Shown piece by piece: positions 1 through 42,812 of a DNA stretch of 42,812 nt (position 1 is its first letter; each line of letters begins with the position of its first letter). The stretch lies in IMG/VR virus record IMGVR_UViG_2872192773_000007. One strand, written 5' to 3'. The stretch comes from a virus. Lineage: Duplodnaviria > Heunggongvirae > Uroviricota > Caudoviricetes. The notes under the pieces are model-generated. The model searched no databases. It was not told the origin of the DNA and worked only from the letters and a program-made list of their open reading frames with translations. A program made the translations under genes and the position numbers.

Positions 1-436
1 ATGAAGCGTGAAGAAATCGCTGATCTGATGGCGTTTGTCGTCGTTGCAGAGGAGCGTAGCTTCACTCGCGCAGCAGCCCGCCTGAGCATGGTGCAGTCAG
101 CTTTAAGCCAGATAGTGCGCCGTATAGAAGAACGATTGGGATTGCGGCTTCTGACGCGAACCACGCGCAGCGTTGTACCCACTGAAGCGGGCGAGCATCT
201 TTTGTCTGTTCTTGGCCCTATATTGCATGACATAGATTCTGCCCTGACATCCCTGAGCGATCTGCAGAACCGCCCATCCGGGACAATACGTATTACTACT
301 GTAGAACATGCAGCAAAAACGATATTGTTACCAGCCATGCGCACATTCCTGAAATCGCATCCTGAAATTGATATTCAGCTTACCATTGATTATGGTTTGA
401 CCGATGTCGTTTCTGAACGTTTTGATGCAGGCGTCC
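1..436 (+). pseudogene. LysR-family transcriptional regulator, 3'-truncated by IS600
   Basis: N-terminal HTH region (FTRAAARLSMVQSALSQ) and LysR-type co-inducer domain start; reading frame runs straight into the IS600 right end at 437. Confidence 0.7.
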
Positions 437-479
437 TGAGGTGTACTGGCAATAGCGGACACTACCATTTGTTCTTTTT

Positions 480-1298
480 TTAAGCAGCCATCTGATGATA
501 TTTTTCCCTGAAGGCTGCCGGGGAGATATTCCCCAGACGAGAGTGACGACGCTGACGATTGTAGAAAATCTCAATGTATTCCCGTATTACTGAGATGGCT
601 TCATCCCGGTTATTAAAACGATAGTGGCTCAGGCTCTCATTTTTCAGCGTTCCCCAGAAGCTTTCCATCGGAGCGTTGTCGTAACAGTTACCTTTACGCG
701 ACATTGATGTTTTCAGACCAGACTGCTCCTGTATGACCCGGTAATCGTATGCGCAGTACTGTGAACCTCGATCAGAGTGGTGGATTAGCCCGGCAGGTGG
801 GCGCTGGCTCCTGAGCGCCATAAACAGGGCTTTACCTGTCAGCTCTTTTGTCATGCGCTCTCCCATGGCGTAGCCGACAATTTCACACGTATAAACATCT
901 TTGATGCCAGCGAGGTACAACCATCCCTCCTGTGTGGCAACATACGTCAGGTCCGCCACCCAGACCTGATTTGGTGCTGTAGGAGCGAACGTCTGGTTCA
1001 GCAGATTTGGCGCAACTGGCAGATTGTGGTTCGGGTTCGTAGTCGCTCTGAACTTGCGTTTCTGCTTACAGCGTAGCCTCAGCTCCTTACGAAGACGTGC
1101 CAGTCGGTCACGACCAACGATGATGCCATTCTCTGCCAGCTCCGTCTGGAGCCGCCGGGTTCCATATGTTTCGCGAGTGCGGATATGTGCCACCTTAATC
1201 TCCAGTGTTAGCCGCTCATCACTTTGTTTTCTGTCTGAGGGTTCATGCTGTACCCAGTTGTAATAACCGCTCCTGGATACACCAAATACCTGACACAT
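480..1298 (-). CDS. IS600 OrfB (DDE transposase catalytic subunit)
   Basis: 272-aa ORF with IS3-family DDE region (HSDRGSQYCA...CYDNAPMESFWGTLK). Confidence 0.9.
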   Translation of the reverse strand: MCQVFGVSRSGYYNWVQHEPSDRKQSDERLTLEIKVAHIRTRETYGTRRLQTELAENGIIVGRDRLARLRKELRLRCKQKRKFRATTNPNHNLPVAPNLLNQTFAPTAPNQVWVADLTYVATQEGWLYLAGIKDVYTCEIVGYAMGERMTKELTGKALFMALRSQRPPAGLIHHSDRGSQYCAYDYRVIQEQSGLKTSMSRKGNCYDNAPMESFWGTLKNESLSHYRFNNRDEAISVIREYIEIFYNRQRRHSRLGNISPAAFREKYHQMAA

Positions 1299-1333
1299 CG
1301 CTTCAATGGGAAATTGTTGTCGCCATTGTTCGA

Positions 1334-1636
1334 TTAACGCGTATTTTTCAGCGACTCCTGTGCAAAATACACTGTTGCTTTTTTTAATATATCTCGCTCA
1401 AGGCGAGCTTCATTTAACGCCTTACGCAGTTGCAGAATTTCAGATTCCAGTTCAGCCACCGTGCGGGAACCAGGAGTACCGAGCCCTTTTCTGGCGGCGG
1501 TAACCCATTGTCCTAAAGTGCCTTCAGGAAGGGATAATCGGGAAGCGCCTTCACTGATCGAAAGTTGATTTTCAAGAACCGTTCTGACAGCTTCGGCTTT
1601 GAACTCTTTAGAGTAACGTTGGGTTTTTCTGCTCAT
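1334..1636 (-). CDS. IS600 OrfA (HTH transposase subunit)
   Basis: 100-aa [23 protein letters not shown]..., repeated in all complete IS600 copies in the window. Confidence 0.9.
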   Translation of the reverse strand: MSRKTQRYSKEFKAEAVRTVLENQLSISEGASRLSLPEGTLGQWVTAARKGLGTPGSRTVAELESEILQLRKALNEARLERDILKKATVYFAQESLKNTR

Positions 1637-2163
1637 TATTAGCTCCTTCTGATGCCATTCTATTTCAGGAAGGAGTGTCCGTTAAACTCAGGCTACCTCA
1701 CTTATTCTAAGCAACCGGGTAGCATCATACGGGGCAATTATGGCCGCATTACCATACATGCAACTGTACATAGCTGATTACCTGGCTGACACCATGCATT
1801 TGTCAGCAGAGGAGCACGGCGCGTATTTGTTGCTGATGTTCAATTACTGGCAAACAGGAAAGCCAATACCCAAAAACAGGTTGGCAAAAATTGCCCGTCT
1901 GACTAACGAGCGATGGGTTGATGTTGAACCATCCTTGCGGGAGTTTTTTTGTGATAACGGCGACGAATGGATGCATCTTCGGATTGAGGAAGATCTGGCA
2001 TCTGTCAGAGAAAAATTAACCAAAAAATCAGCCGCAGGAAAAGCATCTGTTCAGGCCAGAAGAAGCAGAAAGGAAGCAGATGTTCAAACAAAACAAGAGA
2101 GAAATTTAACAGGTGTTCAAACAGATGTTGGAGTGGTGTTCGAACATGATGCTGGATTTGCCC

Positions 2164-3069
2164 CTATATTTCCAGACATCTGTTATCACTTAACCCATTA
2201 CAAGCCCGCTGCCGCAGATATTCCCGTGGCGAGCGATAACCCAGCGCACTATGCGGATGCCATTCGTTATAATGCTCGAACGCCTCTGCAAGGTTCTTTG
2301 CTGCCGTTAACCCGTCTGGTTTGGGCATGATACTGATGTAGTCACGCTTTATCGTTTTCACGAAGCTCTCTGCTATTCCGTTACTCTCCGGACTCCGCAC
2401 CGCCGTGTTCTTCGGTTCAAGTCCCAACATCCGGGCGAACTGGCGTGTTTCATTAGCCCGGTAGCATGAACCATTATCCGTCAGCCACTCCACTGGAGAC
2501 GACGGAAGATCGTTGCCGAAGCGGCGTTCCACTGCTCCCAGCATGACGTCCTGTACTGTTTCACTGTTGAAGCCGCCGGTAGTCACCGCCCAGTGCAGTG
2601 CCTCACGATCACAGCAGTCCAGCGCGAACGTGACACGCAGTCTCTCTCCGTTATCACAGCAGAACTCGAACCCGTCAGAGCACCATCGCTGATTGCTTTC
2701 TTTCACGGCCACTCTGCCTGTATGTGCCCGTTTCGATGGCGGTACAGCAGGTTTTCGCTCAAGCAACAGCGCATTCTGGCGCATGAGCCGGTAAACACGT
2801 TTGGCATTGATCGCAGGCATACCATCAAGTTCTGCCTGTCTGCGAAGCAGCGCCCATACCCGACGATAACCATACGTGGGCAGCTCTCCGATAACATGGT
2901 GTATACGGAGAAGCACATCCGTATCATCAGTGTGACGACTGCGGCGGCCATCCATCCAGTCATCGGTTCGTCTGAGAATGACGTGCAACTGCGCACGCGA
3001 CACCCGGAGACAACGGCTGACTAAGCTTACTCCCCATCCCCGGGCAATAAGGGCGCGTGCGCTATCCAC
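2164..3069 (-). CDS. insD: IS2 transposase InsD
   Basis: 301-aa ORF, identical in both IS2 copies. Confidence 0.9.
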
Positions 3070-41123: not shown

Positions 41124-41426
41124 ATGAGCAGAAAAACCCAACGTTACTCTAAAGAGTTCAAAGCCGAAGCTGTCAGAACGGTTCTTGAAAATCAACTTTC
41201 GATCAGTGAAGGCGCTTCCCGATTATCTCTTCCTGAAGGCACTTTAGGACAATGGGTTACCGCCGCCAGAAAAGGGCTCGGTACTCCTGGTTCCCGCACG
41301 GTGGCTGAACTGGAATCTGAAATTCTGCAACTGCGTAAGGCGTTAAATGAAGCTCGCCTTGAGCGAGATATATTAAAAAAAGCAACAGCGTATTTTGCAC
41401 AGGAGTCGCTGAAAAATACGCGTTAA
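41124..41426 (+). CDS. IS600 OrfA
   Basis: 100-aa ORF. Confidence 0.9.
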   Translation: MSRKTQRYSKEFKAEAVRTVLENQLSISEGASRLSLPEGTLGQWVTAARKGLGTPGSRTVAELESEILQLRKALNEARLERDILKKATAYFAQESLKNTR

Positions 41427-41461
41427 TCGAACAATGGCGACAACAATTTCCCATTGAAGCG

Positions 41462-42280
41462 ATGTGTCAGGTATTTGGTGTATCCAGGAGCGGTTATTAC
41501 AACTGGGTACAGCATGAACCCTCAGACAGAAAACAAAGTGATGAGCGGCTAAAACTGGAGATTAAGGTGGCACATATCCGCACTCGCGAAACATATGGAA
41601 CCCGGCGGCTCCAGACGGAGCTGGCAGAGAATGGCATCATCGTTGGTCGTGACCGACTGGCACGTCTTCGTAAGGAGCTGAGGCTACGCTGTAAGCAGAA
41701 ACGCAAGTTCAGAGCGACTACGAACCCGAACCACAATCTGCCAGTTGCGCCAAATCTGCTGAACCAGACGTTCGCTCCTACAGCACCAAATCAGGTCTGG
41801 GTGGCGGACCTGACGTATGTTGCCACACAGGAGGGATGGTTGTACCTCGCTGGCATCAAAGATGTTTATACGTGCGAAATTGTCGGCTACGCCATGGGAG
41901 AGCGCATGACAAAAGAGCTGACAGGTAAAGCCCTGTTTATGGCGCTCAGGAGCCAGCGCCCACCTGCCGGGCTAATCCACCACTCTGATCGAGGTTCACA
42001 GTACTGCGCATACGATTACCGGGTCATACAGGAGCAGTCTGGTCTGAAAACATCAATGTCGCGTAAAGGTAACTGTTACGACAACGCTCCGATGGAAAGC
42101 TTCTGGGGAACGCTGAAAAATGAGAGCCTGAGCCACTATCGTTTTAATAACCGGGATGAAGCCATCTCAGTAATACGGGAATACATTGAGATTTTCTACA
42201 ATCGTCAGCGTCGTCACTCTCGTCTGGGGAATATCTCCCCGGCAGCCTTCAGGGAAAAATATCATCAGATGGCTGCTTAA
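41462..42280 (+). CDS. IS600 OrfB
   Basis: 272-aa ORF. Confidence 0.9.
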   Translation: MCQVFGVSRSGYYNWVQHEPSDRKQSDERLKLEIKVAHIRTRETYGTRRLQTELAENGIIVGRDRLARLRKELRLRCKQKRKFRATTNPNHNLPVAPNLLNQTFAPTAPNQVWVADLTYVATQEGWLYLAGIKDVYTCEIVGYAMGERMTKELTGKALFMALRSQRPPAGLIHHSDRGSQYCAYDYRVIQEQSGLKTSMSRKGNCYDNAPMESFWGTLKNESLSHYRFNNRDEAISVIREYIEIFYNRQRRHSRLGNISPAAFREKYHQMAA

Positions 42281-42536
42281 AAAAAGAACAAATGGTAGTG
42301 TCCGCTATTGCCAGTACACCTCAGTTTATGAATGGCAAAAGGACGTTGATTTGCATCAGGTCTTGTGGAGCCGCTCGCGATTAGGTGAACGCCCAAAAGG
42401 GCAGGGAATTACAGGTGCTGATCATTTCTGGTTTGGTCATACACCGTTGCGACATCGCGTGGATATTGGCAACCTGCATTATATTGATACCGGTGCTGTC
42501 TTTGGGGGCTAACTGACTCTTGTGCAACTGCAATAA

Positions 42537-42728
42537 TTAAAAATCACCATACTCCTGTGCTGGTCGCCAGAAACCATCTATAAAATCCTCAATCGGAAAA
42601 CAACCGCCATGGCGGATCCGTTGATCGCTCATAGAATAAAGACACTGCTGTTCCGTGTTGTAGACATCCACAACAATATCTTCACAACCGCCATCTAGGT
42701 AGCAAACAAAAAGTACCAGCGCGAACAT
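42537..42728 (-). CDS. yebW: small backbone protein, YebW-like (63 aa)
   Basis: MFALVLFVCYLDGGCEDIVVDVYNTEQQCLYSMSDQRIRHGGCFPIEDFIDGFWRPAQEYGDF; the ORF track shows an in-frame extension to the window edge, so the true start is uncertain; lies next to pphA as recalled for E. coli. Confidence 0.4.
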   Translation of the reverse strand: MFALVLFVCYLDGGCEDIVVDVYNTEQQCLYSMSDQRIRHGGCFPIEDFIDGFWRPAQEYGDF

Positions 42729-42812
42729 TTCATCCCCGAAGTGTGGTGCCGTACCGTTAAGTTTAGGAGAGATTTTACAACGGGGGAATAACCAGGACAA
42801 ATAACCCGCCAT

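Follow-up and report, generated by a model that had tools for sequence, protein, structure and literature searches.

Does the absence of a target site duplication (TSD) around an insertion sequence (IS) mean that gene order has changed at that point? The question is raised by IMGVR_UViG_2872192773_000007, a stretch of 42,812 nt recorded in IMG/VR as a virus, which we analysed at its full length and call the window. An earlier note had read its TSD-less IS copies as recombination or deletion junctions, and had concluded that gene order here is not ancestral. The former was borne out case by case; the latter holds at three junctions but not for five of the eight TSD-less elements (two IS911, IS1 copy 3, an IS629-type element and IS600 copy 4), which lie in collinear DNA and lack 0.35-1.1 kb, on one side only, relative to references from enteroinvasive Escherichia coli (EIEC) or sister strains. 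The IS elements thus fall into three classes, namely five simple insertions, five local flank losses and three large junctions.

Judged from the alignments, the window belongs to the chromosome of Shigella flexneri, with pgrR at one end and pphA/yebW at the other, and contains decayed lambdoid prophage DNA. It corresponds to the known IS-saturated S. flexneri region that holds sitABCD and ipaH3 inside decayed prophages. Positions 1-10,483 are 100% identical to S. flexneri AUSMDU00008355 (LR213452.1), and the structure is common to further S. flexneri chromosomes, including that of G1663. An origin from the pINV plasmid was rejected, since searches against plasmids matched only IS and sit sequences. 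We consider it quite probable that, overall, the prophage DNA between pgrR and pphA/yebW of S. flexneri has acted as a sink for IS elements, shaped by transposition, by losses from IS tips and by large recombination events.

Insertion sequences and target duplications

The inventory was obtained by self-BLAST of the window and by direct reading of every element boundary. It comprises 13 IS copies (five IS600, three IS1, two IS2, two IS911 and one IS629-type) and a 61-bp IS911 end, for a total of 14,836 bp or 34.65% of the window. This matches the thirteen copies plus one solo end, roughly 14.8 kb and about 35%, counted in the earlier note, which listed these copies correctly but overlooked a 464-bp IS66-family fragment and a 12-bp IS600 tip; with these two, the IS-derived share is 35.8%. 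Copies of one family are 99.7-100% identical within the window, and the identical repeats, which had been described as multi-kb, are 0.77-1.33 kb long.

As references we considered mainly EIEC FDAARGOS_944 (loci L001 and L005), which has an intact lambdoid prophage at ttcA-uspF, the Rac site, and, for the ipaH3-pphA end, EIEC VL40 (locus L002). The five TSDs that had been reported were all exact. IS2 copy 1 (2153-3483, minus strand; TSD GATGC) has flanks that overlap by 5 bp at L001 9503-9507, and IS1 copy 1 (8631-9398, minus strand; 9-bp TSD CTGTTAGTA) has flanks that are contiguous at L001 15899-15908, with an overlap of 9-10 bp. The flanks of IS600 copy 2, in the ORF6N gene (11241-12504, plus strand; TSD CAG), overlap by 3 bp at L001 17739-17741, and those of IS600 copy 5, in pphA (41060-42323, plus strand; TSD GTT), by 3-4 bp at L002 23823-23826. 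For IS2 copy 2 (33461-34791, minus strand; TSD GCAGC), a query made of the joined flanks crosses the site unbroken in E. coli prophages. A 3-bp TSD is by itself weak evidence (a chance of 1/64 each); since the sites are uninterrupted in E. coli or EIEC, the five simple insertions stand beyond the short-TSD evidence. Reading of the flanks likewise upheld the absence of TSDs at IS600 copies 1 and 4, IS1 copies 2 and 3, both IS911 copies and IS629, and the truncation of IS600 copy 3 directly against IS1, which is abutted by its nt 316.

Family assignment was based on length, termini, products and TSDs. We considered as IS600 (IS3 family) an element of about 1,264 bp with imperfect terminal inverted repeats starting from TGAGGT, an orfA with HTH_Tnp_1, an orfB with rve and a 3-bp TSD. 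Four copies in the window are 1,264 bp and one is 949 bp long, with ends TGAGGTAGCC.../...ACACCTCA; their products carry both domains, the 3-bp TSDs are backed by empty sites (CAG, GTT) or by a split pair (TCC, see below), and RefSeq labels the matching hits 'IS3-like element IS600 family transposase'. For IS1, defined by 768 bp, insA/insB, terminal repeats GGTAATG... and a TSD of 8-9 bp, we found three 768-bp copies with Zn_ribbon_InsA and DDE_Tnp_IS1 domains. The two IS2 copies (IS3 family) are 1,331 bp long and 100% identical, have 5-bp TSDs and match hits annotated 'IS3-like element IS2 family transposase'. The two IS911 copies (IS3 family) are identical, 1,249 bp long, with ends TGAAGTGG...CCACTTCA; a 99.9% identical copy elsewhere is annotated 'IS3-like element IS911 family transposase', and the identity to ISEc52 is 95%. 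They are 1 bp shorter than the ISfinder IS911 entry, which we take to be 1,250 bp.

The remaining complete element is an IS3-family copy, putatively of the IS629/IS1203 type (26695-28000, minus strand; 1,306 bp). Its ends match TGAACCGCCCCGG, which we take to be those of the IS629/IS1203 pattern, presumably together with a length of 1,310 bp, an orfA/orfB pair with programmed frameshift and a 3-bp TSD. Copies of 1,310 bp at other Shigella loci show 97.4-97.8% identity to this one, which lacks GTGT in a (GT)n run, so that orfB is frameshifted into two frames; the same defective copy is present in all S. flexneri loci checked, and in two other Shigella loci the copies are 1,310 bp long with orfB open. 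An ALIL frameshift pseudoknot is found in the element. Hawkey et al. name IS1203, not IS629, for S. flexneri (PMC7373316).

The IS66-family fragment (36771-37234, plus strand) is the first 464 bp of a left end, with the terminal GTAAGCG and tnpA codons 1 to about 127. It begins with GTAAGCGCCCC, is 99.8% identical to S. dysenteriae plasmid copies aligned from the first base of the element, and matches residues 1-119 of the NCBIfam TnpA model (E = 2.7e-53); the matching element is annotated 'IS66-like element accessory protein TnpA'. Neither tnpB nor tnpC is in the part that lies in the window, and the assignment to IS66 holds for the fragment only.

With 13 copies in 42.8 kb, the window has 30 IS per 100 kb. 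For whole Shigella chromosomes, 229-348 IS insertions are reported, with 9.26 per 100 kb in the densest one (PMC7373316); against chromosome-wide densities, the Poisson probability of the window is from 4e-7 to 2.5e-4. The window is therefore a genuine local IS hotspot, but one of the expected kind, that is, dispensable prophage DNA under IS expansion.

Flank losses at copies without target duplications

IS911 copy 1 (13721-14969, minus strand) has no TSD and replaces 1,111 bp of the integrase gene of an integrative island; these 1,111 bp are present at the site in a sister genome (L049). A 4-bp TSD, CTAC, was considered for this copy and rejected when the true ends of the element were set by means of an ISEc52 insertion in L001; the observed loss of 1,111 bp also counters it.

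IS911 copy 2 (28362-29610, minus strand) has no TSD in the window, where 823 bp of the AAA_24 gene are lost on its left. In CP026871.1 (L032) the same insertion has CAG on both sides (...tttCAG-IS-CAGccatg), and the 823 bp are kept before it. The empty site in L001 reads GGTTTCAGCCATG, and two further loci (L019 and L021) are without this IS911 and keep the AAA_24 gene. The TSD and the 823 bp retained in CP026871.1 therefore indicate that copy 2 was an ordinary insertion, followed by a deletion exactly from one IS tip.

The other three cases are similar in form. IS1 copy 3 (25581-26348, plus strand), in the integrase gene, has no TSD and lacks about 0.42 kb of int on one side; the IS629-type element, between xis and AAA_24 and also without a TSD, lacks 350 bp of flank; IS600 copy 4 (29862-31125, plus strand), between gam and recE, has no TSD and lacks about 0.4 kb of the recE 3' end. 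For all three, both flanks are neighbours in the reference, with order and orientation kept.

The right inverted repeat of IS600 copy 4 is abutted by a 12-bp remnant of the tip of an IS600 left inverted repeat (IRL), CAGGCTACCTCA (31126-31137, minus strand), which is the exact reverse complement of IS600 nt 1-12. This remnant occurs in 17 of the 17 S. flexneri-type loci checked and is absent from recE in L001 and in another reference locus (L007). Its position implies that a second, inverted IS600 was once there and was almost wholly removed; it may reflect the insertion of an IS600 into or next to another one, and then a tip-anchored deletion.

We considered whether all the TSD-less IS could instead be breakpoints of large inversions or translocations, so that no neighbourhood would be ancestral. 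Eight elements have no TSD, and many IS-mediated inversions are known in Shigella genomes (PMC8072062). However, both flanks of the two IS911 copies, IS1 copy 3, IS629 and IS600 copy 4 are adjacent and co-oriented in the EIEC or sister-strain references, and this collinearity refutes such an explanation for five of the eight elements; as a general account, we regard it as highly improbable.

Deletions adjacent to IS elements are classically known for IS1, and also for IS3-family elements with the IS-excision enhancer in enterohaemorrhagic E. coli. The losses in the window likewise begin exactly at the IS tip and run into one flank only. In the process that we propose, transposition would have been followed by the loss of 0.35-1.1 kb exactly from one IS tip, with gene order kept.

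The recombinant IS600 in pgrR

IS600 copy 1 (437-1700, minus strand) has no TSD, its flanks being TCC and CTT, and connects nt 436 of pgrR with ydaU, 12 bp into the latter gene. On its left is the 5' part of pgrR (ycjZ), 436 nt of chromosomal backbone (1-436, plus strand) that are cut by this element; the fragment is 99.3% identical to E. coli pgrR, aligns with L005 8730-9165 and encodes a LysR N-terminal domain.

The window reads pgrR...GCGTCC and then one IS600 tip, the opposite of that in the following contigs. Six S. flexneri draft contigs (L066-L071), which we reached via partial PgrR proteins labelled S. flexneri, read an IS600 IRL tip, TCC and then GTCTGGG..., that is, pgrR from nt 437 onward, followed by mppA and ynaI. 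The TCC duplication of a single insertion is hence split over two IS600 copies, which is the signature of homologous recombination between IS600 elements, and on these sequence comparisons IS600 copy 1 is proven to be an IS600 x IS600 recombinant. The earlier note had suggested that orphan flanks be paired across the genome, and for this copy such pairing worked; among the orphan flanks within the window we found no cross-pairing, only one chance 3-bp match. An IS600 in pgrR (TSD TCC) would have recombined with an IS600 at the ydaT/ydaU border of the prophage.

A simple deletion of about 30 kb at IS600 copy 1, from the pgrR 3' end to ydaT and including fnr, was rejected, because fnr, dbpA and ynaJ exist in strain M90T and because the 3' half of pgrR was found together with TCC. 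Contigs with an IS1 beside pgrR nt 442 (L043) were not used, since they have a different IS1 end variant and a different junction. An open reading frame (ORF) at 1-483 is chimeric, with pgrR codons 1-145 running into IS600 (160 aa), and is called as a gene in many assemblies.

The permuted prophage and the terminus inversion

Three parts of the window match modules of the FDAARGOS_944 prophage at 96-99.6% identity, namely 1701-13533 its early-right arm, 19391-24882 its tail-fibre genes and sitDCBA, and 24840-36709 its integrase and early-left arm, and 37235-41059 is the end of another prophage, with ipaH3 beside pphA as in EIEC VL40. An att core at 24840-24882 (no strand assigned) forms an attP-type junction between the phage right arm, to its left, and int, to its right; precisely, the window matches L001 on its attR side as far as the core, and from there onward L005 on its attL side. 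The prophage is therefore circularly permuted, in the order right arm, sit, attP-type core, int and left arm. It does not have the canonical form from attL to attR, in which int would lie beside the bacterial attachment site at one end and the phage right arm beside it at the other; the outer ends are the IS600 in pgrR and an IS911/IS66 cluster.

In three EIEC genomes, sit and ipaH3-pphA are 0.45-0.49 Mb apart and have a relative orientation opposite to that in the window. For S. flexneri M90T we used the gene table in the supplement of an RNA-seq study (PMC4229854), in which the locus tags run from tpx (1314) to sitA (1348), a gene of the yebS/T type (1363) and manZYX (1377-1379), further on through acpD (1749), dbpA (1769), fnr (1779) and ynaJ (1781), and then to a phage integrase (1793), yebZ (1795) and pykA (1809). 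This order implies that everything from pphA to the pgrR neighbours is inverted, by an inversion that spans the terminus. Taken together, the permutation and the published order put this region at an end of the inversion that spans the S. flexneri terminus.

The coordinates, TSDs, empty sites, flank losses, split TCC duplication and collinearity with independent assemblies are shown by the sequences; we infer the order of events, and likewise the choice of the inversion breakpoint between the two junctions. In the history that we slightly prefer, the sit phage would already have been linked at pphA with the prophage carrying ipaH3, for instance after a phage circle had recombined with the prophage resident there; the inversion would then have arisen in one IS600 x IS600 exchange, with one partner in pgrR and the other at the ydaT/ydaU border. 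Alternatively, the sit prophage would have been excised as a circle (attP) and have entered pgrR by an IS600 x IS600 exchange; the inversion would have followed, breaking on the left at the IS911/IS66 cluster (36.7-37.2 kb) and on the right in the ipaH3 prophage. This second course accounts for the attP-type core between sit and int and for the split TCC duplication, and it fits with phage modules that are single-copy, with both arms equally close to the single Rac-site prophage of FDAARGOS_944, with a pgrR only 20 kb from the normal attachment site at ttcA, and with a sit phage that is at ttcA-uspF in relatives. It needs, however, one more event than a single IS600 x IS600 inversion, and the join at 36.7-37.2 kb is no clean IS-to-IS exchange, as IS66 is cut at nt 464 and fused to a truncated tail-fibre gene; we hold it to be a possible course, though a somewhat doubtful one. 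Both histories fit these observations.

The permuted order could also be thought to derive from tandem prophages at the Rac site. We rejected this as a full explanation, in spite of a similar sitA-core-int' remnant in E. coli H22, because the presence of mppA-fnr-dbpA at the far end of the inversion would then need at least three inversions.

Several points weigh against our overall account and should be read with it. The DNA 'missing' at IS1 copy 3, IS629 and IS600 copy 4 is defined against an EIEC prophage that is 95-99% identical, and we found no sister strain with an intact flank for these three elements, so part of the flank difference there could be phage mosaicism. The tip-anchored losses may have been transposase-mediated or illegitimate. 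As the remnant of E. coli H22 shows, tandem prophages at the Rac site are another source of a sit-core-int' arrangement, so that the attP-type junction in the window may have come about by more than one route. The M90T order rests on how the locus tags of some of the genes are numbered, and not on an alignment of whole genomes. Finally, the other flank of the partner IS600 (expected as ydaT...CTT) was not seen in the draft contigs or in protein look-ups, because the draft contigs break inside IS600.

Two proposals go further. The sit prophage may have been captured through IS600 recombination (or recombination between prophages), with attP intact and not by its own integrase, and the tip-anchored deletions of IS3-family elements may amount to a systematic, transposase-dependent erosion; we put these forward tentatively, as rather unlikely.

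Other large junctions

IS1 copy 2 (16394-17161, plus strand) has no TSD, and its right end abuts nt 316 of IS600 copy 3 (17162-18110, plus strand), of which only nt 316-1264 are left, the first 315 nt being gone. Island DNA lies on the left of this composite and the tail-fibre region on its right, and L001 18768-41240, a block of about 22.5 kb from the holin to the tail tip, is without counterpart in the window. The composite is the scar of a deletion that took away the remainder of the island and no less than 22 kb of late phage genes (lysis, head and tail). The IS1/IS600 junction had no match among the GTDB species representatives, where S. flexneri is evidently not a separate species.

The second composite begins with the solo IS911 end of 61 bp (36710-36770, plus strand), which is 100% identical to the IS911 copies and is the IRL, or transposase-proximal, end; the flank outside it varies between strains. 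An IS66 element is inserted in this IS911 remnant and is itself truncated, and is followed by a tail-fibre gene truncated at 37235, with no IS terminus on either side of the IS66/tail-fibre border. The whole join links the early-left arm of the sit prophage to the ipaH3-pphA end. A chimeric ORF of 203 aa at 36853-37464 consists of IS66 tnpA codons 1 to about 127 and the tail-fibre 3' end.

Assembly check and variation between strains

The earlier note had warned that the repeats make this region prone to mis-assembly, and a collapsed or chimeric assembly would explain the arrangement if near-identical repeats had been confused. Within-family IS copies are indeed 99.7-100% identical, and one of the complete genomes, CP026772.1, has an untrimmed end overlap of about 21.7 kb that includes this region. 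On the other hand, order, orientation and junctions are the same in CP097828.1 (99.99% over window 13554-42812, with record coordinates that add up), in CP026772.1 (collinear with window 358-42812) and in LR213452.1 (the first ~10.5 kb), at 99.9-100% identity across the cited assemblies; the junctions are common to several other complete genomes, and the repeats, of at most 1.33 kb, are easily spanned by long reads. Independent complete assemblies with the same arrangement show that the order in the window is real, and we consider an assembly error extremely improbable. In CP026772.1 (L013, L054) the first ~10 kb of the window occur twice, 21.7 kb before the end of the record and near its start; the end copy has many single-base indels and looks like an untrimmed circular-assembly overlap.

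The same mechanisms are seen to act between strains. In CP182555.1 (L014), a full IS600 lies between the sequence left of copy 2 and the sequence right of copy 3, a deletion of 5.9 kb; in CP026810.1, IS600 copy 2 is joined to an IS600 at 33449, with the loss of 20.9 kb including sitABCD. Losses also start from tips: 6.9 kb are lost from the right tip of IS1 copy 3 in L039, and 309 bp at the 61-bp IS911 tip in L041 and L036. In CP127081.1 (L026), window 16191-36709 (20.5 kb) is inverted. One breakpoint coincides exactly with the outer border of the 61-bp IS911 end, and the second falls within island DNA that is contiguous apart from this break. As homologous recombination inside an IS cannot alter the flank of its tip, this inversion implies an event of the transposase type or an illegitimate one; we did not see the reciprocal junction.

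Two observations concern IS sequence itself. The IS600 at the copy-4 site of CP182555.1 is only 95% identical to those of the window, with the same flanks, and may be due to gene conversion or be a divergent isoform. In L039 and L051, a second, complete IS66 is inserted at nt 355/356 of the truncated IS66 and contains in turn an IS600 with an adjacent loss of 452 bp, so that three IS are nested in one another.

Gene content between the insertion sequences

The early-right arm of the lambdoid (Rac-site type) prophage (1701-13533, plus strand) is collinear with L001 9056-18767 at 96-99.6% and is broken by IS2, IS1 and IS600. It carries ydaU, ydaV, the nin-region, hok/sok, a Q-like DUF1133 gene, ORF6N and four tRNAs. 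The tRNA at 13223-13299 is Met(CAT) according to ARAGORN and tRNA-Ile in RefSeq for the identical gene of the EIEC prophage; presumably it is of the lysidine-modified ileX type. Rfam hits above the gathering score include a sok antitoxin RNA beside hok (7816-7990) and C4 antisense/isrK RNAs, one set per phage arm (10937-11138 and 35391-35579).

The left end of the integrative island (13534-16393, plus strand), with attL-like DNA and a truncated integrase, is broken by IS911 copy 1. The island sits at the 3' end of a phage-borne tRNA-Gly(TCC), the whole side region being 13459-16393, and its right part is lost. Its integrase is a 534-aa tyrosine type (DUF6538/Phage_integrase in sister strains), of which only the last ~125 codons are left here; it is intact in five sister genomes (among them L049, L050, L056 and L057). 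Identity is 81% to the glyU tRNA/att region and 79-85% to the integrase of an E. coli glyU island. Tandem repeats with a period of roughly 47 bp lie in island DNA at 15698-15835.

Next come the tail-fibre assembly, tail-fibre and DUF4376 genes of the sit prophage (18111-20818, plus strand) and the intact sitDCBA, an iron/manganese ABC transporter (21019-24468, minus strand) that is 99.3% identical to L001, where sitA-D are annotated. sitABCD and the phage gene blocks are 98-99.5% identical to E. coli references with unchanged internal order, and are thus not artefacts of rearrangement, as had been feared for apparent operons; the junctions do create chimeric ORFs. The intR-type integrase, with the start of xis (24941-26694, minus strand), is split by IS1 copy 3, keeps the integrase catalytic domain and aligns in two pieces with L005 28475-29217 and 29640-29985. 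The early-left arm of the same prophage type (28001-36709, minus strand) aligns with L001 336-6736 and L007 8001-11569, is collinear with the references except for the IS elements, and carries AAA_24', gam, recE', kilR, ydaE, rha, the C4/isrK RNAs and dicB-side DNA.

At the right end, the truncated tail-fibre 3' end and the DUF4376 gene of the ipaH3 prophage (37235-37976, plus strand) are followed by ipaH3 (38156-39871, minus strand), a chromosomal E3 ubiquitin ligase effector of the type III secretion system with LRR_TTSS and NEL domains, 99.5% identical to ipaH3 of EIEC VL40. Tandem repeats with a 60-bp period at 39317-39529 are its leucine-rich repeats, and Rfam places a CssrB small RNA upstream of it, at 40000-40182, also above the gathering score. 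pphA (40610-42512, plus strand), split by IS600 copy 5, aligns with L002 23379-24035, and yebW is the next gene, at the right end of the window. A direct repeat of 712 bp at 98.5% identity (20077-20788 and 37235-37946) comes from the two different prophages; if its copies recombined, 17 kb would be lost, with sitABCD and all of the early-left arm.

Relation to known systems and implications

All the biology seen here is already known and is ordinary for Shigella. As in the IS expansion and decay described for this group (Hawkey et al. 2020, PMC7373316; Seferbekova et al. 2021, PMC8072062; Nie et al. 2006, PMC1550401), we found the same expanded IS (IS1, IS2, IS600 and IS911, and as a putative fifth the IS629/IS1203-type copy), consequences of the same kind, namely pseudogenes, IS-mediated deletions and inversions around terC, and insertion sites that vary from strain to strain; the window does not differ in kind and is only locally denser (30 versus at most 9.3 IS per 100 kb). 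With the sit-carrying lambdoid prophage that E. coli, EIEC and other Shigella have at the Rac (ttcA-uspF) site it shares modules at 96-99.5% identity (the ydaU-Q region, tRNAs, tail fibre, sitABCD, intR-type integrase and the gam/recE/rha arm). The S. flexneri copy differs in being permuted, with sit and int joined via an attP-type core, in having lost about 22 kb of late genes, and in being bounded by the IS600 in pgrR instead of ttcA on the left and by the ipaH3-pphA end on the right. As in the chromosomal ipaH prophage remnants, or 'ipaH islands' (PMC9046306, PMC8072062), ipaH3 lies at a prophage end, next to tail-fibre/DUF4376 genes and pphA as in EIEC VL40; unlike there, only the last ~0.75 kb of the phage is left, fused upstream to the IS66 fragment.

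The value of these results lies mainly in careful annotation. The absence of a TSD is no evidence of changed gene order, and most such copies in this region hide losses of less than a kilobase. The split of pgrR most likely also defines one end of the terminus inversion, which gives a precise and checkable breakpoint. The virulence-associated sitABCD lies between direct IS600 repeats, and at least one sequenced strain has already lost the locus by IS600 recombination.

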